Program-made: the position numbers and the translations under genes
Shown: positions 3-10,835 of the stretch, in pieces
Position numbering within the stretch: the stretch's first letter is position 1
How the letters are laid out: each line of letters opens with the position of its first letter
NCBI GenBank assembly: GCA_964384365.1
Contig: CAYLKF010000007.1
Span: 10,732 to 74,731 of the forward strand
Origin: an uncultured Pseudomonadota bacterium
Lineage (GTDB): Bacteria; UBA10199; JADFYH01
Length of the DNA: 64,000 nt
Reading direction: 5' to 3'
The notes under the pieces: generated by a model
What the model saw: only the letters and a program-made list of their open reading frames with translations
Database searches by the model: none
Told to the model about the DNA's origin: nothing

Positions 3-380
3 ATTTTACTTCTAAAATTTTTCTTTCCAAAAAGTGAGAGCTTAGGTGCCACACTTCCTGCTCAAGGATTTGTTTTTCAGGCCTTTCTTTTAGAAATTCT
101 TTTAACGGCGATTTTAATGTTTGTCATTTTGAATGTATCGATCGGTTCTAAAGAAAAAGGAGTGATGGCCGGTTTGGCAATTGGAGTAACTGTTGCCCTC
201 GAAGCTTTATTTGCAGGGCCTCTTTCGGGTGCTTCGATGAATCCCGCTCGTTCTTTGGCTCCCGCTTTGGGGAGTGGTCAGCTTGAGTTTTTGTGGATTT
301 ATTTAACAGCGCCCTTCTTAGGCAGTTTTTTGGCAGTTTTTGCGTGCCGGGCTTGTCAAAGTAAGGAGTGCTGTTCGTGA
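3..380 (+). CDS. MIP-family aquaporin/aquaglyceroporin (5'-truncated by window edge)
   Basis: Frame is open from position 3 (ILLLKFFFPKSESLGATLP...). Second NPA box in SMNPARSLAPAL, hydrophobic helices, Cys-rich tail CRACQSKECCS. Confidence 0.9.
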   Translation: MLLLKFFFPKSESLGATLPAQGFVFQAFLLEILLTAILMFVILNVSIGSKEKGVMAGLAIGVTVALEALFAGPLSGASMNPARSLAPALGSGQLEFLWIYLTAPFLGSFLAVFACRACQSKECCS

Positions 381-790
381 AGAAAAATATTCTCTTTGTT
401 TGTATTGAAAATTCTTGTCGTTCGCAAATTGCAGAGGCCTTTGCAAAAATTCATGGGGCTGAAAAAGTGAATGCCTATAGCTCGGGCTCTAAACCTTCTG
501 GAATTGTGAATCCAAAGGCGATCGAATCGATGAAACAATTGGGCTATGATCTTTCTTCTCATGATTCAAAATCGTTACAGCAAATTCCACAAATTGAATA
601 TGATGTGGTAATTACAATGGGTTGTGGCGATGCTTGCCCGTTTGTGAGGGGTAAAAAACGTATCGATTGGCAAATCCCAGATCCTAAAAACATGCCGCTT
701 GAGGAATTCCGAAAAATACGAGATGAAATCGAAAGTAAAGTTCGAGATCTACTCGCTCAATTTTATAGCATTTCAACTTTTAATGAGTAG
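377..790 (+). CDS. arsC: Arsenate reductase, LMW-PTP fold (thioredoxin-type)
   Basis: P-loop CIENSCRSQIAE and GCGDACP. GTG start at 377 overlaps the aquaporin TGA (GTGA); SD AAGGAG at 363-368. Confidence 0.85.
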   Translation: MKKNILFVCIENSCRSQIAEAFAKIHGAEKVNAYSSGSKPSGIVNPKAIESMKQLGYDLSSHDSKSLQQIPQIEYDVVITMGCGDACPFVRGKKRIDWQIPDPKNMPLEEFRKIRDEIESKVRDLLAQFYSISTFNE

Positions 791-2363: not shown

Positions 2364-2494
2364 AAATGGGTCAGCATTTTCTCCGTTCGCGAAAAACGTG
2401 CCGTAAGGAAAGTTTTAAAATTTTTCAAAGAGTCTATTTTTTTAAAATCGATGGTTCGGCACTTTTCCCTCACTTCAAAAACGCCGACCCATTT
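2364..2494 (-). repeat. Family-1 structured repeat, copy A (131 bp)
   Basis: 17-bp arms 2364-2380 and 2478-2494 (2 G.U on minus strand). Inner stem GTGCCG/CGGCAC; conserved CCGAA and CCTTACGG. Confidence 0.85.
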
Positions 2495-3425
2495 ACGATT
2501 TTTTCCAGATCCATTTCTCTACTCCACTCATCCCCACATAGATCAACGCAATCGAGATGAGGCTTGCGCCCGTAGGAAACGAAAAGAGAAAAGAAAAGAA
2601 ATAGCCAAAGGCAGGCAGTAAAGTGCCAATCAGTGCGGAAACTAAAAAAGCATCTCGAAAAGATTGGGTTTGTTTGAGCGCGATGAAGGGGGGAATTACC
2701 ATTAAAGCAAAAACAGGCAGACTTCCTAAAATTTTGAGAGAAACCGTAATGGCTACCGTGAGGGTGAAGTAGAGAAAAATCATCCAGCTCTTTGCCGATA
2801 AACCGCGAATTTTCATGAAATCAGAATCGGCGGAAACAAAGATAAATTCACGCCGAAAGAAAAAATGAATCAAGAGAAGCGGAACGCAAAATGCCAAAAT
2901 TAAATGGGCGTCTTGAGGAGTTACTGCAACGGCATCGCCGAAGAGTAGAGTATCGATATTATGGCGCCCTTCAGAAATTCGATCTCCTATCATAATAATC
3001 AAGCCCGAAGCGGCGATATAAATGAGTCCCATCAAACTTTCGTCGGGGTATTCACTCCGTTTTCTGAATTTTGCAAAGAGCAGTGCTGTGAGGGCGGCAA
3101 GTAAAAAACCTGCAAGCAAAGGAATTGAAGATTCATTCGAGTGGAGCCCTAAGAGATCAAAGGCTAAAAAACAGAGAAAAATCCCCAGAGAAGCGCCTTG
3201 TGAAAGCGAAAGCGTTACAAACACAATTCGATTCAGAAGAATATAAACTCCCAAAATCGAAAGCGTGAGTCCGCAAAGAGCCCCCCCGAGGATGGGGTCT
3301 TTCCAAAGCGAGTAAGCCTCTAGAAAACGAGAAGACTCCTCGGGTTTTAAAGCAATCATTCCCCCAAAGAGCAGAAGGCTTACGAAACTATAAAAAATGA
3401 ATCTCGAAACGGTGGTTTTTTTCAT
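2493..3425 (-). CDS. znuB: Metal (Zn/Mn) ABC transporter permease, ZnuB-like
   Basis: ABC-3 family motifs (LLNRIVFV..SLSQGASLG, LLFGD); multiple TM helices; operon context. Confidence 0.85.
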   Translation of the reverse strand: MKKTTVSRFIFYSFVSLLLFGGMIALKPEESSRFLEAYSLWKDPILGGALCGLTLSILGVYILLNRIVFVTLSLSQGASLGIFLCFLAFDLLGLHSNESSIPLLAGFLLAALTALLFAKFRKRSEYPDESLMGLIYIAASGLIIMIGDRISEGRHNIDTLLFGDAVAVTPQDAHLILAFCVPLLLIHFFFRREFIFVSADSDFMKIRGLSAKSWMIFLYFTLTVAITVSLKILGSLPVFALMVIPPFIALKQTQSFRDAFLVSALIGTLLPAFGYFFSFLFSFPTGASLISIALIYVGMSGVEKWIWKKS

Positions 3426-4128
3426 GCACGTGTACGGTTTCGCCGTATGCCTCCGATAAGGTTTTTTCGTTTAAGATTTCTTCGACAGGCCCGCAAAAAA
3501 AATTATTTTCGCCCAGTAAGCAAAGCCAGTTCACTTGATTGATGATTCGATTCAAATCGTGATCGATCACCATCCACGAGAAGTGCTCGTTTTGATAAGT
3601 TTGAAGAATTTCCCAAATTTTTTCACGAAATTGATGATCGAGAGAATTGTGAGGTTCATCCATAATTAAAACGTTGGGCTGATCGATTAAGGCTCGCGCA
3701 ATGAGTGTGCGTTGACGTTGGCCCCCAGAGAGTTCTCGCAAGAGTTTTTTGCGCAAGGGCAGAAGATCGAGATTTTTTAAAACTTTTTCAGCCTTGCTTT
3801 CAAAATCAGAACTTGAAAATTTCCAGCGCGAACGCAAAGGCATGAGGCCCATTGTTAAAACATCGTCGACGGTGAGAGGAAATAAGCGATCGATGTGTTG
3901 CTCTTGAGGCACATAGCCAAAGCGGGTTTGCGCAGCCCAGGTGTAAGAACCCGAAAGGGTGGGGATGAGCCCCAAGATGGTTTTCACAAAGGTTGATTTT
4001 CCCGAACCGTTTCCACCAATGATTCCAACACGGGCGCCCTGTGGAATGGCAAAGGAGAGGGGTTTGAAGAGATTAACACCCAGATACCCCATCTTTAGGT
4101 TTTTGGCTTCGAGCAACACTTGTTTCAT
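3388..4128 (-). CDS. znuC: Metal ABC transporter ATP-binding protein, ZnuC-like
   Basis: Walker [31 protein letters not shown]-loop. ATG at 4128 preferred because the longer ORF runs into repeat copy E. Confidence 0.88.
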   Translation of the reverse strand: MKQVLLEAKNLKMGYLGVNLFKPLSFAIPQGARVGIIGGNGSGKSTFVKTILGLIPTLSGSYTWAAQTRFGYVPQEQHIDRLFPLTVDDVLTMGLMPLRSRWKFSSSDFESKAEKVLKNLDLLPLRKKLLRELSGGQRQRTLIARALIDQPNVLIMDEPHNSLDHQFREKIWEILQTYQNEHFSWMVIDHDLNRIINQVNWLCLLGENNFFCGPVEEILNEKTLSEAYGETVHVHEKNHRFEIHFL

Positions 4129-4139
4129 AAAATCTTCTG

Positions 4140-4287
4140 TAGCGGGCCAGTGAGTTCTTACAGTCGCAAAAAAACTCGCCGTAAGGAACAAAAACTAGCA
4201 ATCGATTTTGGAAATTGCCTTATTTCAATTGAAATAGCCCTCGCGGCTCGGCAGTTTTCACTCATTCCAGAACTCGCTAGCTCGCTA
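4140..4287 (-). repeat. Family-1 structured repeat, copy E (148 bp)
   Basis: 19-bp arms 4140-4158 and 4269-4287. Inner stem AAAACT-GCCG/CGGC-G-AGTTTT; CCTTACGG conserved. Overlaps the last codons of znuA. Confidence 0.75.
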
Positions 4288-5194
4288 CAACTTTCTTTAT
4301 CTCATCGATTAAATGATCGATCAAATCAAAATAGGTTTTAATTCCGCTCTCTCCTGTGTCGGTTGGAAGATCGAGCATAGGAATTCCACTTTTTTCCGAA
4401 AGATATTGAGGAATTTTTTTAGGGTAAAAATTTTCAACGAGAATGGCTTTTACTTTATAGTTGGGAAGCATTTTTAAGATTTCATCAACCCGTCCGGAGC
4501 TGGGCGGAATTCCTGGTTTTGCTTCGATGGCCGCCACGATGTTTAGCCCAGTCCAATTCGTGAAATAACTGAGTGAGCGGTGATAGGTAACCACGTCTTT
4601 GCCTTTGAAGGCAGCAATTTCTTTTTCCCAGGTTTTCATTTTTTCGTTGATGCGGTTCAAGAAATTTTGGAACCGAGCCTCATAGTAGGATTTTCCTTCA
4701 GGGTCAACCTGGGCCAAGTGTTGATAAATATTCGCAACCATCAACTTTGCATTCCGAGGGTCGAGCCAAATATGGGGGTTTCCCAAAGGGTGCACGTCGC
4801 CCATCGAGCGGTCGACTAAAGTCTTGGGAACTTCTAAGACTTGAATTCCTTGAGAAAGGTTCACGTTGCCCGGAGCGCCTACCATGATTTTTCCATTTCC
4901 GGATTGATTCACAACGGGTGGCAGCCAGCCCGTTTCTAACTGTAATCCGCCGTGTAAAAGCAGATCGGCTTTATTGAGTGCGACCGCAAACATCGGTTTG
5001 GCATCTAGAAAATGAGGATCTTGATTGCCTCGGGCGAGCGAAGTAACGCTAACGCGTTCTCCTCCAATTTCTTCTGCCAAGCTTCCGAACACTGGCAAGG
5101 TGGCGACGATATTCACCTTAGCTTGAAGGGTAGAAACAGGAAACACGCCGCAAGAGGCAAGAAGGGAAAATAAAAAGAATAAAGTTTTTTTCAT
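4277..5194 (-). CDS. znuA: Metal ABC transporter substrate-binding protein (ZnuA/TroA family)
   Basis: Signal peptide; metal ligands in DPHF, DVHPLGNPHIWLDP, VTYH, IEAKPGIPP. Confidence 0.9.
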   Translation of the reverse strand: MKKTLFFLFSLLASCGVFPVSTLQAKVNIVATLPVFGSLAEEIGGERVSVTSLARGNQDPHFLDAKPMFAVALNKADLLLHGGLQLETGWLPPVVNQSGNGKIMVGAPGNVNLSQGIQVLEVPKTLVDRSMGDVHPLGNPHIWLDPRNAKLMVANIYQHLAQVDPEGKSYYEARFQNFLNRINEKMKTWEKEIAAFKGKDVVTYHRSLSYFTNWTGLNIVAAIEAKPGIPPSSGRVDEILKMLPNYKVKAILVENFYPKKIPQYLSEKSGIPMLDLPTDTGESGIKTYFDLIDHLIDEIKKVVAS

Positions 5195-5313: not shown

Positions 5314-6693
5314 TTAAAACAAATGCGCTCCATGGGCACCTAAGCTAAACATGAGTTGTAAAATGACCGCACTCGCCCAATCTTCTCCGGTTAATTTATC
5401 GGCTTCATATTGGAGTCGAATTTGAGAATATTCTGTCGGATTAAAGGCGATTGCGGGTGTCAGCCGAGTTTCGCGCGTTTGTAATCCTACCGGCAAGCCC
5501 ATTTGGTCCCAGCGAAAGGCCGCGTGCCAACGCTTGTAGAATTGCCAATCGAGATAACTGTAAAGTCCACCATCGGTCATGGTTTGGGTAAGATCTTCAG
5601 CGCTCACTTGCATGTTTCGTCCGATGTACTCGGTTTGCCAAGAAAGGCTTGTGTGGGCAGAGGGTTTCCATCTTAAGAGAAAATCTCCGCCGTAGAGCGC
5701 GGTATAATTTCCGGGGGCTGTTGCGTTGTAGCCCCAGGCGAAAGATCCACCCAATAGAAGAGTAAGCGTATTGGTTAGATCGGTGCTGGCGCTTAAGCGT
5801 CCGTTATAGAGAAAATCTTTCTTTTGAGTGCCACCGAAGCTGTTTGAATTATCACCATTGGTGACGGTGCTTTGAAACTGTAAGAAAAACGGAGTAGGAA
5901 AAAGATACGACATTTGCAATCCTACTTCGCCGAGCCCATCAGCCCCCAGCAGATATTTGTTGGCAAGATTATTATCGGCAAAAGTCCAGGCATGAAGATG
6001 TTTAGGGTTTTGGCGTCCAAAGGGAAGCAGCATAATTCCACCTTTAAACTGCAAGCCTTTAGGCAGACCACTCTGGGTGGTGAAATAGGCTTCTTCAATT
6101 TCCACACCCTCTTGGGCAAAACTTAAGAAAGCATCGTAGCGAAAATAAGGATCCACCGCGCCCTGAAAGGCGACTTCGAGCTCCTGAAAAGTAAAACCTG
6201 TACTGGCAGGATCTATGCCCACAGAGCCTGTGTTATCGCCTAGAGGGTCACGTTCAAAATAGGAGCCTGCGAAAGCACCAGTTACGCTAATGTCGGGCAA
6301 AATTTTTGCAGCAGCACTATTACCTGTGGGGTATTTCCAGAGACCAATCGATTTCCGGTTGGCGCCCGGCGAAGCAGGAGCATTATTCACCTGATCGAGC
6401 AGGGCTTGAGATTCTTCTTTTAGAGTTTCTGTTTTTTCACCGATCTTCGGGCTCTCTTGCTCCTCTGAAGGAGTGGGTTTGAGATCTGGCTTCGAAGAAC
6501 GAGAAGTTTTTTTGCCTTCGAGTTCTGATAGGCGTTCATTTTGTTTTTCAACAAGTTCCGTTAATTTTTTTACGCTTTCTTTGAGCTCTTGTACTTCTTG
6601 TTGAAGCGCTTTGGTATCTTGAGCAAACAAGGGTGTGCTTACTTGCAAGAAACAAAGGCATAAAAGAAAGCTTCGTTTAAAAAGCTTAGGCAT
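5314..6693 (-). CDS. Outer-membrane beta-barrel metal-uptake protein linked to the Zn ABC operon
   Basis: Signal peptide, N-terminal coiled coil, beta-strand patterning, C-terminal LGAHGAHLF; first structural gene of the znu operon. Confidence 0.7.
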   Translation of the reverse strand: MPKLFKRSFLLCLCFLQVSTPLFAQDTKALQQEVQELKESVKKLTELVEKQNERLSELEGKKTSRSSKPDLKPTPSEEQESPKIGEKTETLKEESQALLDQVNNAPASPGANRKSIGLWKYPTGNSAAAKILPDISVTGAFAGSYFERDPLGDNTGSVGIDPASTGFTFQELEVAFQGAVDPYFRYDAFLSFAQEGVEIEEAYFTTQSGLPKGLQFKGGIMLLPFGRQNPKHLHAWTFADNNLANKYLLGADGLGEVGLQMSYLFPTPFFLQFQSTVTNGDNSNSFGGTQKKDFLYNGRLSASTDLTNTLTLLLGGSFAWGYNATAPGNYTALYGGDFLLRWKPSAHTSLSWQTEYIGRNMQVSAEDLTQTMTDGGLYSYLDWQFYKRWHAAFRWDQMGLPVGLQTRETRLTPAIAFNPTEYSQIRLQYEADKLTGEDWASAVILQLMFSLGAHGAHLF

Positions 6694-6741
6694 AAATTCC
6701 CCCCTTAATGACTTAAATGATTAAAAACGAGAAAAGCTCAT

Positions 6742-7029
6742 TTAAGAAAAAAGAGGCGGGCCACGGATGAGAAAAGTAAAAGAAGGGGATGCGAGAAATC
6801 TTGTTGTAACAGAAGGGCAAGATTTTTGAGCAAAAGTAAAAGGCGGATTTAAATAATCAGTTTTGGGGGAGTTGAGTTTTGAAAAATGGTGAGAGATCTG
6901 ACAAAGCGAGCAATGCGAGGTTTCTGTGGGAGCTTCTTTATGAGAGTGGCTGAAGCTTAATATCGGCAAAAGCAGGATAGACGCGAAAATCCAGTAACTA
7001 ACCCATTTTTTAAGAATAAACCGTCGCAT
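6742..7029 (-). CDS. Small upstream ORF, DUF2946/CruR-like candidate arrest peptide
   Basis: N-terminal TM helix, HSHSH, HCSLC, C-terminal IRGPPLFS; 48 nt upstream of the OM metal-uptake gene. Confidence 0.7.
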   Translation of the reverse strand: MRRFILKKWVSYWIFASILLLPILSFSHSHKEAPTETSHCSLCQISHHFSKLNSPKTDYLNPPFTFAQKSCPSVTTRFLASPSFTFLIRGPPLFS

Positions 7030-7142
7030 GCGTGCTGATTACCTAAAATTAAGATTTTTTGTCAATCGTCTTAAAGGCCAGCGTTTCTTCTAATCGTGTC
7101 CTCCAGAGGCAGATAGGAAAAAACTCGCCTTTACAGAATTTT

Positions 7143-7619
7143 TTAAAAATGGGGAAATAAAGTCCAAATTTTTAAGGCTAAAAGGAGTCTCAGAGTGAGA
7201 TTGGCGTAAATTCCTGCCGCCAAATCATCGCATACTACCCCTAAACCCCCCGAAAGATTTTTTTCGCACCAATTTGCAGGAAAAGGTTTAAAAATATCGA
7301 AAAGACGAAAACAAACAAACCCCGCGATCACCGTTTTGAAATCAAAGGGAAGGGCAAACATTGTGAGAAGATAACCTGCAATTTCATCGATCACGATTTT
7401 TTCAGAATCTTCTTTTTGAAAATATTGTTCGGCGAGGTTTGAACACCAAACTGCAAGAAAGCAAAAGCCAACAAGAAAACAGAGATTTGAGTAAAAGGGT
7501 AAACCCTTTGTAGCCCAATAAAGCAAAACAGCGACGGCCGTACCATAAGTGCCTTGGGGGCCTGGAAGAAATCCAACACCCGCTCCGGTTGCCAAAAAGA
7601 GGGCAAATTTTTTAACCAT
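7143..7619 (-). CDS. pgpA: Phosphatidylglycerophosphatase A
   Basis: ATGAGVGFLPGPQGTYGT, KIVIDEIAG, FRLFDIFKPFP, GVVCDDLAAG. Confidence 0.92.
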   Translation of the reverse strand: MVKKFALFLATGAGVGFLPGPQGTYGTAVAVLLYWATKGLPFYSNLCFLVGFCFLAVWCSNLAEQYFQKEDSEKIVIDEIAGYLLTMFALPFDFKTVIAGFVCFRLFDIFKPFPANWCEKNLSGGLGVVCDDLAAGIYANLTLRLLLALKIWTLFPHF

Positions 7620-8758: not shown

Positions 8759-9313
8759 TTAAAAACCGATACGTTTTTGGTTGTTTTTAGGAGGGGTCAT
8801 GATTTCTCGAATCGCATCAAAAACAACTTTGAATTGGTGATCGTATTTCTTTTCAAGATTTTCTAGCTTTCGTGCAAGATCTTTGTTTGAGATGAGTATT
8901 TCGCGAAGCTGCACGAAGGTGCGCATAATTTGAACATTTACTAAAATCGCTCTCTTGCTTTTCAGAACACTGGAAAGCATGGCGATGCCTTGTTCAGTAA
9001 ATACGTAGGGTAGATATTTTCTGTGTTTTCCACGACCTGTTTTTAAGATGCCAAATTGGCATCTTAAAGAATCGTACTCTTCCTGCGAAAGTTGAAAACA
9101 AAAATCATTAGGGAAGCGCTCGAGGTTTCTTTGTACCGCTCGGTTGAGAGCACCTGTTTCAACTTCATAAAGATAAGCCAAATCAGAATCAATCATCACT
9201 TTGTGACCACGAATTAGATAAATACATTTTTCAATTTGCGTTGGAGAGATTAGGAATCTGCTTTGGGTGATAGAAGACACGCTTTCTAGAAAAAAAAGCA
9301 GGATTCGTGCCAA
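8759..9313 (-). CDS. ORF6N-domain DNA-binding protein
   Basis: IRGHKVMIDSDLAYLYEVET, LNRAVQRNLERFPNDFCFQL, YLPYVFTEQGIAMLSSVLKS; start uncertain. Confidence 0.85.
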   Translation of the reverse strand: MARILLFFLESVSSITQSRFLISPTQIEKCIYLIRGHKVMIDSDLAYLYEVETGALNRAVQRNLERFPNDFCFQLSQEEYDSLRCQFGILKTGRGKHRKYLPYVFTEQGIAMLSSVLKSKRAILVNVQIMRTFVQLREILISNKDLARKLENLEKKYDHQFKVVFDAIREIMTPPKNNQKRIGF

Positions 9314-9883: not shown

Positions 9884-10835
9884 TGGCTTTTTTCCTTTTT
9901 CGTTCGAGTTCAGGGCTTATTTTTTTAGGGCTCGGTTTTGTTTCGGTAGTTTGAGGATAAGTGGTGGGCATCCGGCCCCCCTTAATCATACGATCAGCCA
10001 GAGTATCGGCTTTACGGGTTTCGGATTCTTGCCGGCGTTCCTTATTTTTTTGAATCTGCAATTCAATGACTTTTGGATTCGGGTAAGTGTTTTTGATTTC
10101 TTCATAAATTTTGAGCGCTTTATCGAAATCTCCCAAATCTTCATAGCAATCGGCCATATTAAACTTCGCTTCGCTGCTCAAACTGCTTTCGGGGTAATTT
10201 TTAAGAAAAGCCTCATAAACCGGAATCGCTTCACGCGTGTTTCCCTCTAAAAAATAGCTGTTTGCGATTTGAAAGATGATCTGATCGGTAAGAGGCGTTT
10301 GTGGGTTTTGATCTAAGATTTTTTTAAAATCTTTACGGGCTGCTTCAAACTGCTTGAGTTTCATTAAACATAAGCCCACTTGGAGTCGGTATTGGTCATT
10401 TTGATAATGGTTCGGAAAGTTCATCAGAATATTTTGATATTCTTTGAGCGCTTTATCAAATTGGCCGGTTGAAAAGAAAATTTCTCCTTTTTTGGCGTAA
10501 GACTGCAGGGCATAGGGGGTGCCTGGAAAACGGATGGTAACAAGTTCATAGCTTTTGAGGGCTTGGTCGAAATTATTCAAGGAGAGACTGTAGATATCTC
10601 CTACCTGAAGGAGAAGTTCGGGAATTTTAGGATGATTGGGGTTTTCTTCGATCAAGCCGAGGTAAATTCCAATCGCCTCTTTGTATTTTTTTGATTTCCA
10701 ATACTTCTCGGCTTTTTCAATTTTTTGCTCGAAAGTTCTCGGTTTAAAACCATAAACCGCCGCCATAATTCCCAAAGCAACGATTGCGAAGAGCGCAATA
10801 ATTTGGCGGGGCCCAAATGAGGGTTTTAATTTCAT
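9858..10835 (-). CDS. Membrane-anchored TPR protein (CpoB/BamD-like repeats)
   Basis: N-terminal TM helix followed by repeated TPR-like units; overlaps the gyrA stop (ATGA). Confidence 0.8.
   Translation of the reverse strand: MKLKPSFGPRQIIALFAIVALGIMAAVYGFKPRTFEQKIEKAEKYWKSKKYKEAIGIYLGLIEENPNHPKIPELLLQVGDIYSLSLNNFDQALKSYELVTIRFPGTPYALQSYAKKGEIFFSTGQFDKALKEYQNILMNFPNHYQNDQYRLQVGLCLMKLKQFEAARKDFKKILDQNPQTPLTDQIIFQIANSYFLEGNTREAIPVYEAFLKNYPESSLSSEAKFNMADCYEDLGDFDKALKIYEEIKNTYPNPKVIELQIQKNKERRQESETRKADTLADRMIKGGRMPTTYPQTTETKPSPKKISPELERKRKKAIEDILHNY

Follow-up and report, generated by a model that had tools for sequence, protein, structure and literature searches.

The 64-kb stretch of bacterial DNA analysed here (contig CAYLKF010000007.1, 64,000 nucleotides, called the window throughout) contains a 95-codon open reading frame (ORF) that precedes genes for an outer-membrane porin and a zinc-type ATP-binding cassette (ABC) importer. 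From comparison with other genomes, this ORF very probably encodes a conserved regulatory leader peptide resembling CruR, and we also consider it fairly likely, with less assurance, that the full mechanism is that of a divergent metal-sensing arrest leader of the CruR/CutF type, which would keep the operon on at low zinc. To our knowledge, copper is the only metal so far shown to control bacterial genes via a metal-sensing arrest peptide (CruR and CutF). The further claim, that this would be the first zinc-sensing nascent peptide and part of a widespread CruR-like class governing a porin-ZnuABC module by unmasking of a ribosome-binding site (RBS), is put forward tentatively, its chances falling slightly short of even. 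The leader and its parts are given here in window coordinates with the evidence for each; P0001 and P0002 are two related proteins, and L001 is the locus of P0001.

6742..7029, minus strand: leader ORF, 95 amino acids, a candidate metal-sensing arrest peptide (ORF list, pattern of synonymous changes against L001, same-position leaders in about 70 loci)
6952..7005, minus strand: hydrophobic segment, residues 9-26, WVSYWIFASILLLPILSF, a putative export signal or N-in membrane anchor (read from the sequence)
6886..6948, minus strand: His/Cys cluster, residues 28-48, HSHKEAPTETSHCSLCQISHH, a putative metal-binding site (column counts in an alignment of 66 leaders)
6901..6912, minus strand: CxxC, Cys40-Ser-Leu-Cys43 (sequence; kept in P0001 and P0002)
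6769..6861, minus strand: spacer, residues 57-87, variable in sequence and fixed in length (codon comparison with L001)
6754..6765, minus strand: RGPP, the putative arrest motif, residues 89-92, codons CGT GGC CCG CCT (sequence)

The product of this ATG-initiated ORF, taken from the ORF list and the sequence, is MRRFILKKWVSYWIFASILLLPILSFSHSHKEAPTETSHCSLCQISHHFSKLNSPKTDYLNPPFTFAQKSCPSVTTRFLASPSFTFLIRGPPLFS, followed by a stop codon. A basic N-terminus (MRRFILKK, with its RR and KK pairs) runs into 18 hydrophobic residues, after which the residues of the His/Cys cluster read, in order, F-S-H-S-H-K and then T-S-H-C-S-L-C-Q-I-S-H-H. From CxxC to RGPP there are 45 residues, approximately the length required to span the ribosome exit tunnel. 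The peptide ends I-R-G-P-P-L-F-S, with Leu-Phe-Ser and the TAA stop codon occupying 6742-6753, and the 48-nucleotide (nt) gap that follows (6694-6741), up to the porin ATG at 6693, carries a strong Shine-Dalgarno (SD) sequence, AAGGGGGG. An earlier note on this DNA, made from its letters, had described a transmembrane helix, an HSHSH run, HCSLC, and an IRGPPLFS-stop end located 48 nt before the next gene; upon inspection we recovered each of these except the His run, which is F-S-H-S-H-K, i.e. SHSH. When the 323 stop-to-stop frames of at least 60 residues in the window were compared with the pattern CxxC-(43..47)-[RH][AGSP]PP-(0..9)-end, the leader was the only match. The pgpA gene (7143-7619) lies upstream of it, and the leader, porin, ZnuA, ATPase and permease genes follow one another on a single strand with short gaps; on this arrangement we take the leader to be the first cistron of a metal-homeostasis operon, for which co-transcription is predicted.

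The closest precedent is CruR (Bp2923) of Bordetella pertussis, with its CXXC at residues 90-93 and RAPP at residues 139-142 of 145 (PMC9426467). Both peptides share an N-terminal export signal, CxxC, exactly 45 residues, R(A/G)PP, three residues and a stop codon, and each is the first cistron of a metal-uptake operon opening with an outer-membrane channel; the expected logic, in which stalling would keep an uptake operon on at metal scarcity, would also be shared. Over 2000 DUF2946 proteins keep this CXXC-RAPP spacing, give or take 1-2 residues (PMC9426467). In toeprints of CruR the first Pro of RAPP is in the P site and the second in the A site. CruR stalls at RAPP in the PURE system, and RAPP and RGPP are the RAPP-like sequences that most readily give robust arrest refractory to elongation factor P (EF-P) (PMC12992588). 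The two peptides differ in that CruR ends in RAPP and has 145 residues, whereas the window peptide has RGPP, 95 residues and no match to the Pfam DUF2946 model PF11162, together with an extra invariant His pair right after the membrane segment. Downstream of CruR are a TonB-dependent transporter and a PepSY_TM protein, in contrast to the porin and ZnuABC-type importer of the window, and copper is the metal in the Betaproteobacteria, whereas the window, from an uncultured group of about 43% GC, probably concerns zinc.

A word-indexed search of 5.8 billion proteins identified one relative, P0001 (97 residues, 56% identity), whose locus has the gene order pgpA-leader-porin-ZnuA-ATPase-permease, as in the window; another locus, L002, is a near-identical copy of L001 in a metagenome-assembled genome (MAG). 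Comparing the window with P0001 codon by codon, we found residues 5-56 to be conserved with many synonymous differences, while in residues 57-87 only 2 of 31 are unchanged, with 28 non-synonymous codon differences and no insertion or deletion. Residues 88-95 (IRGPPLFS) are again identical, and four consecutive synonymous changes fall in I-R-G-P. The two compensating 8-residue gaps that MAFFT placed in the spacer were rejected as an artefact, because the codon alignment is ungapped. An exhaustive HMMER search of 1.8 billion representatives gave one further relative, P0002 (E = 7.7e-4), which contains AHAHK...DHCSVCQIS..., ends in QAPP-Q-A, and has exactly 45 residues from CxxC to xAPP; its contig stops 166 nt past the gene, and the downstream context is thus absent. 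The 45-residue spacing is therefore kept in P0001 and P0002 despite diverged spacer sequence, and with length constant and sequence free, a ruler is expected rather than a folded domain.

A genome scan with the leader profile gave nothing beyond the P0001 lineage, a metagenome scan for the leader gave no match, and tblastn of the leader against plasmids gave nothing useful. The sequence searches missed nearly all of the same-position leaders, a likely cause being that all but a few positions have diverged, and we suspect that the frequent failure to call small ORFs adds to those missed. A chance ORF without function would be consistent with the lack of a database family match and with the recovery of only two relatives by sequence search among billions of proteins, but it would leave unexplained the synonymous-substitution pattern against P0001, a position and architecture conserved in about 70 genomes, and the occurrence of the CxxC...[RH]xPP-end pattern in this frame alone of the window; its probability is close to nil, and we regard it as excluded by the comparative data.

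Those genomes come from a pattern scan in which each GTDB species was represented by one genome; it yielded 80 loci with a porin homologue. They span Verrucomicrobiota, Planctomycetota (including Brocadiales), Nitrospirota, Gemmatimonadota, Thermodesulfobacteriota, Dadabacteria, Binatia, Omnitrophota, Spirochaetia-labelled MAGs and UBA10199-type 'Deltaproteobacteria'. A ZnuA homologue follows the porin in every locus whose contig reaches it, usually with a permease and/or ATPase, and a small leader ORF precedes the porin in approximately 72 of the approximately 75 loci with sufficient upstream DNA (the exceptions being L023, L030 and L079). The leaders recovered represent at least 8 phyla and about 70 genomes at species level. 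Their common plan starts with a membrane segment and an invariant His, with another His 2-4 residues on, and continues with a Cys and a C-terminal [R/H][A/G/S/P]PP. For the alignment, 64 leaders were extracted automatically after passing a hydropathy filter and two were added by hand without filtering, giving 66. The position of His28 is His in all 66 and that of His30 in 57. The earlier note had looked to conservation of RGPP and CxxC in orthologs, and this was found for the Pro-Pro pair (66 of 66) and for Cys40 (65 of 66), whereas the Cys43 position holds Cys in only 27 leaders (Thr in another 27) and the motif itself varies: RAPP in 27, HAPP in 18, RGPP in 13, and RSPP and HGPP in 3 each. 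In every leader that carries CxxC, 44 or 45 residues separate it from the motif. The first Pro lies 49-54 residues (mode 51) from the conserved Cys in 65 leaders, and the tail after Pro-Pro is 1-9 residues with a mode of 3.

The variants differ by lineage. Verrucomicrobiota leaders mostly end in ...LLEHAPP or HGPP and have the second Cys replaced by Thr; RSPP leaders occur in Dadabacteria, one Spirochaetia-labelled MAG and one 'Deltaproteobacteria' MAG; and IRPPP ends were found in Brocadiales and other Planctomycetota.

The same comparisons bear on whether the product might instead be a small, stable periplasmic protein with a membrane anchor, acting perhaps as a metal chaperone or alongside the porin or ZnuA as a partner, in which RGPP has no part in regulatory stalling. 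Its N-terminal half (membrane segment and His/Cys cluster) is indeed the best conserved, and some loci encode extra His-tailed lipoproteins, so accessory metal-binding proteins do belong to the system. A folded protein, however, would not allow the near-total replacement of 31 residues at constant length, and for such a protein [R/H]xPP would not be expected always 1-9 residues from the stop codon, nor the leader always as first cistron. Since RAPP and RGPP arrest the ribosome, ordinary proteins strongly avoid them, and CruR itself is poorly structured and barely detectable (PMC9426467). We judge the stable-protein explanation unlikely.

An HMM (hidden Markov model) search against DUF2946, which the earlier note had suggested, had a divided outcome. 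The window peptide has no match to PF11162 even at E <= 10 (the gathering score being 23.7 bits), and P0001 and P0002 likewise have none, but 13 of the 66 same-position leaders match at E <= 1, making this by far the commonest family among them, and one leader, that of L029 (29.0 bits), is the sole one above the 23.7-bit threshold. Leaders of L007 (21.9 bits), L009 (19.9 bits) and L005 (19.2 bits), which belong to the window's wider lineage, align to the end of the model. For comparison, we took nine sequences from the RAPP/RGPP lists in the source data of the EMBO J 2025 survey and checked them with Pfam, which verified eight as DUF2946 proteins above the threshold and scored one at 13.9 bits. 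The Cys-to-first-Pro distance is 49-52 residues in these nine vs 49-54 in the leaders, the mode of the tail is 3 in both, and RGPP occurs in verified DUF2946 members. An HMM built from the eight verified proteins scored the window peptide at 11.6 bits with a collinear alignment from CxxC to the C-terminus; of 2000 full shuffles none reached this score, and of 2000 with the membrane segment preserved one did, the signal lying largely in the motifs and their spacing. Profile-profile comparison using hhalign gave P = 1.4e-4 around CxxC (probability 52%) for a three-sequence profile, and P = 6.7e-6 at the RAPP end (probability 85%) for the 66-sequence profile, each over a short segment. With the CruR-family traits that it carries (N-terminal membrane segment, CxxC, spacing of approximately 45 residues, and C-terminal RGPP three residues from the end), the window peptide is regarded as a divergent member of the DUF2946/CruR family, or as at least continuous with it.

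The genes that follow the leader are these:

5314..6693, minus strand: outer-membrane porin, 459 amino acids with an N-terminal coiled coil, the first gene predicted to be regulated (AlphaFold model, structure matches)
4277..5194, minus strand: ZnuA/AztC-like periplasmic binding protein with His61, His141, His205 and Asp279 (Pfam ZnuA, 1.9e-55)
3388..4191, minus strand: ABC ATPase, ZnuC/AztA-like (Pfam ABC_tran; best NCBIfam model AztA)
2493..3425, minus strand: ABC permease, ZnuB/AztB-like, of the ABC-3 type (best NCBIfam model AztB; the syntenic gene of L001 is ABC-3)

A znuA-znuC-znuB operon behind an outer-membrane receptor had been proposed for this region. The binding protein, ATPase and permease do occur in that order on the same strand, but the receptor turned out to be a porin of the OprP/DcaP kind, as judged from its AlphaFold model: Pfam found neither Plug nor TonB_dep_Rec in the 459-residue protein, only a weak BBP2 match, and the model consists of a beta-barrel after a long coiled coil (mean pLDDT, the predicted local distance difference test, of 71, with the barrel mostly at 75-94). 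In structure it comes closest to OprP, OprO, chitoporin and DcaP, a porin with a coiled coil, and it also matches OmpF. The porin has 685 homologues, all unnamed, and no Pfam or NCBIfam family model; in 18 diverse homologues His232, His454 and His457 (the last two in a C-terminal GAHGAHxF) and seven acidic residues are invariant. Because it adjoins ZnuA in every locus examined, we propose the family as a candidate zinc-selective outer-membrane channel. The ATPase ORF is listed from a TTG, and its true start may be an ATG 21 codons further in. In L005 (4137-4841), L009 (4119-4940) and also L006, an extra gene absent from the window lies between leader and porin and encodes a lipoprotein of 234-273 residues ending in GHSHSHSH or GHSHSHD, possibly an additional metal-handling component of the module.

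Among NCBIfam models, the three ABC components score best against AztC, AztA and AztB of the Azt zinc system, in each case below the cut-off. When the binding protein is aligned with Synechocystis ZnuA (2ov1), its His61, His141 and His205 fall on the ligand His residues, the third site being Glu in MntA; manganese-binding proteins have a His-His-Glu-Asp site, from which the His-His-His of the window protein differs. Of the 81 ZnuA matches scored, 75 have all three His, the alignments of the other six being cut short or broken; the fourth position varies, and no His-rich loop was found in the ZnuA-like protein. In cluster A-I binding proteins a three-His site points to Zn(II), although not conclusively. 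The metal putatively sensed by the leader is thus most likely Zn(II), as judged from the cargo system. Together with the geometry identical to that of CruR, the conserved spacing and the DUF2946-matching leaders, the three-His ZnuA upholds the original proposal of a CruR-like leader ahead of a zinc-type operon in a distant lineage.

The main competing possibility keeps the arrest leader and changes the signal, to copper or another thiophilic metal (Ni, Co or Cd), or supposes that the ABC cargo is not zinc. It draws on the characterised DUF2946 members CruR and CutF, which respond to copper via Cys motifs, on CxxC being a classical Cu(I) ligand pair, and on the enrichment of surveyed RAPP/RGPP leaders upstream of copper genes, and the first two of these count against a zinc sensor. 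The cargo system, however, has the three-His site typical of zinc-specific ZnuA/AztC proteins, and in the leaders the second Cys is often Thr while two His are invariant or nearly so, which favours zinc or mixed N/S ligation over a Cu(I) bis-thiolate. DUF2946 also occurs in zinc contexts, since the Caulobacter gene CC2720 heads the czrCBA-zntA zinc-efflux operon (PMC4176598), and a 2025 survey of RAPP/RGPP leaders lists a few with RGPP upstream of 'zinc-regulated TonB-dependent receptors'. A signal or cargo other than zinc is, in our estimate, rather improbable.

Two further features concern the mRNA.

6689..6762, minus strand: predicted RNA helix (minimum-free-energy folds)
7038..7065, minus strand: possible promoter, TTGACA (7060-7065), 16 nt, GGTAAT (7038-7043) (read from the sequence)

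In the minimum-free-energy fold of the window, the porin SD (6699-6706) is paired with the Gly-Pro-Pro-Leu codons of the leader (6751-6762). Three bases at the porin start, the G of the ATG and the two beyond it (6689-6691), pair with the leader Gly codon, and an inner hairpin of 9 base pairs (6738-6746 with 6712-6720) includes the leader stop codon. Across 62 loci, bases 0 to +19 from the first Pro codon pair with the porin RBS with a probability of 0.14-0.24 per nt, vs about 0.02 per nt elsewhere in the preceding 150 nt, and the expected number of RBS pairs is 4.3 per locus vs 1.5-2.1 when the RBSs were swapped among loci. The TTGACA element lies 30 nt before the leader ATG and is conserved in L001, while the weak -10 element, GGTAAT, ends 8 nt before the ATG; this pair was not accepted by a consensus scan for promoters and terminators, which found nothing at the locus, including no intrinsic terminator. 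The leader has no recognisable SD in the 7030-7065 region, so its mRNA may have a very short 5' untranslated region or none. Neither a riboswitch nor any other Rfam family was detected around the locus, and no Zur-like palindrome was seen, by eye only, in the 120 nt upstream or in the aligned upstream regions. In L001, a long imperfect hairpin (CUACUAACGA...UCGUUAGUA, 10310-10375) occupies the 100-nt spacer between leader and porin and is absent from the 48-nt spacer of the window, showing that the RNA part of the switch differs between close relatives; a conserved attenuator or terminator was rejected for this reason.

By analogy with the characterised arrest peptides, we infer that the leader would stall, which metal it would sense and in which direction the operon would respond, as follows. 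The N-terminal hydrophobic segment would target the nascent chain to the membrane, and the ribosome would then arrest at R89-G-P-P92 with Pro91 in the P site and Pro92 in the A site. At this point approximately 35 C-terminal residues would lie in the exit tunnel, and the His28/His30/Cys40/Cys43 cluster, 49-63 residues from the peptidyl-transferase centre, would have just emerged beside the membrane-inserted N-terminus. The arrested ribosome would occupy the mRNA from the Pro codons to just beyond the stop codon and free the porin SD and start codon, and since it would cover the segment that pairs with the RBS, the porin and zinc importer would be translated. Metal, most likely Zn(II), binding to the His/Cys cluster would release the arrest, with termination three codons on; the helix would then re-form and turn the operon off, possibly reinforced by Rho. 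The net effect would be post-transcriptional control that switches the operon on at low zinc. As the regulated genes encode an importer, the sign of CruR, default arrest and release on metal, would be the logical one.

Several observations count against this zinc-responsive arrest mechanism. The window peptide lacks any Pfam or NCBIfam match, even at E <= 10, and its similarity to DUF2946 lies mainly in motifs and spacing, so that convergence on the same geometry is possible. The window fold is no more stable than those of shuffled sequences (z = -0.31). About half of the loci show little pairing between RBS and stall site; one of them is the closest relative, L001, whose 100-nt spacer contains a different hairpin and which lacks such pairing, and the mechanism may thus not be uniform. 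The pairing signal is also inflated, because Pro-Pro codons are intrinsically complementary to the SD, and the leader counts are not independent, because many of the 66 leaders come from related Verrucomicrobiota. A Rho-dependent step has been shown for CruR, with its 162-nt gap in B. pertussis, while the window has a 48-nt gap, lacks a CruR-type long intergenic region, and has a predicted RBS-masking helix instead; the short gap makes a CruR-style Rho step doubtful, and Rho, which might also load within the porin gene, is a possible though less likely contributor. Finally, CutF works in the opposite sense, metal inducing its stalling.

Stall-dependent unmasking of the next RBS operates in SecM and MifM, and given the RBS pairing across the 62 loci we favour it for the window leader. 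In CutF of Rhodobacter capsulatus, a DUF2946 protein, stalling melts a stem-loop that hides the cutO RBS (PMC9973294; bioRxiv 10.1101/2025.02.05.636593). The window peptide resembles CutF as a probable secreted leader in which a C-terminal proline motif would stall the ribosome and melt an RBS stem-loop, with metal sensed by Cys of a nascent, co-translationally exported chain; in both CruR (in a cytoplasmic model) and CutF (in a periplasmic, co-translational model), the sensor site has been proposed to meet the metal on the emerging chain. The differences are that CutF has CxxxC and PPP, is EF-P-sensitive, and by metal-induced stalling induces a detoxifying oxidase, whereas the RGPP of the window is reportedly EF-P-refractory; because the window genes are importers, a response of opposite sign to that of CutF is expected.

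ApdA, ApdP, ApcA and the surveyed RAPP/RGPP leaders are likewise small exported proteins that carry R-A/G-P-P close to the C-terminus and whose ORFs precede the genes under their control (PMC7897499, PMC10987492, PMC10951233, PMC12992588), but the characterised peptides among them monitor Sec/YidC. The window leader might similarly report secretion or insertion capacity, as do SecM, MifM and ApdA/ApdP, or act as a constitutive coupling device, and both its conserved membrane segment and the discovery of C-terminal RAPP/RGPP peptides with export signals as Sec/YidC monitors fit such a role. The genes downstream, however, are a porin and a metal importer with no Sec/YidC components, and ligand sensing is suggested by the invariant His/Cys residues, set at a constant distance from the stall site; a non-metal signal or constitutive coupling is very unlikely.

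Metal-sensing arrest leaders are thus already known from CruR (2022) and CutF (2023, 2025); what is new here is the operon type, probably the metal, the His-His-Cys signature, the natural variants of the arrest motif and the broad distribution. The downstream classes in the 2025 RAPP/RGPP survey include TonB receptors, YcnI, PCu(A)C, PepSY, CopC, TolC, CzcA and 'carbohydrate porin', and in the text and tables of the CruR, CutF and survey papers, figures apart, we found no mention of the ZnuABC/metal-ABC class or of this porin family. A literature search for znuA with an arrest peptide or upstream ORF found no paper linking them, a result that covers neither figures nor subscription journals and is not proof. 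Because the porin next to the leader is unannotated, annotation-based leader surveys cannot classify this module, and more generally such surveys miss classes whose neighbour gene is 'hypothetical'.

In the classical zinc regulon, znuABC is Zur-repressed and is accompanied by ZnuD-type TonB receptors. The module described here resembles that regulon, expressed under zinc limitation, in coupling an outer-membrane entry route with a ZnuABC importer, but differs in having a conserved translated leader and a porin in place of transcriptional control and a TonB receptor. The window locus and its approximately 70 counterparts suggest that the device runs a zinc importer in many little-studied phyla, where leader control would act in place of, or alongside, the textbook Zur repressor, and they make the unnamed porin family a candidate zinc route across the outer membrane. 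If this is true, metal-sensing arrest peptides would be a general regulatory principle and not specific to copper, and HAPP, HGPP, RSPP and RPPP would be natural arrest variants. The motif series (RAPP, RGPP, HAPP, HGPP, RSPP, RPPP), combined with CxxC or CxxT at fixed spacing, offers material for studying arrest release; how a ligand outside the tunnel releases arrest at the peptidyl-transferase centre is a mechanistic question for CruR as well.

Elsewhere in the window, an ORF at 8759-9313 (minus strand) lies between rotamase and DUF192 genes, and its L001 counterpart has a phage-associated ORF6N domain. In L001 and L002 a WapI-domain gene (L001 7243-7674; PF24716) adjoins the ORF6N gene; no counterpart of it was seen in the window ORF list, with no search aimed at WapI having been made. 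At the start of the window, an aquaglyceroporin-like ORF fragment (117-380, plus strand) is followed by a low-molecular-weight phosphatase/ArsC-like ORF (368-790, plus strand); the genes of L001 syntenic to 117-790 carry Pfam MIP and LMWPc domains and adjoin a pst/phoU cluster.

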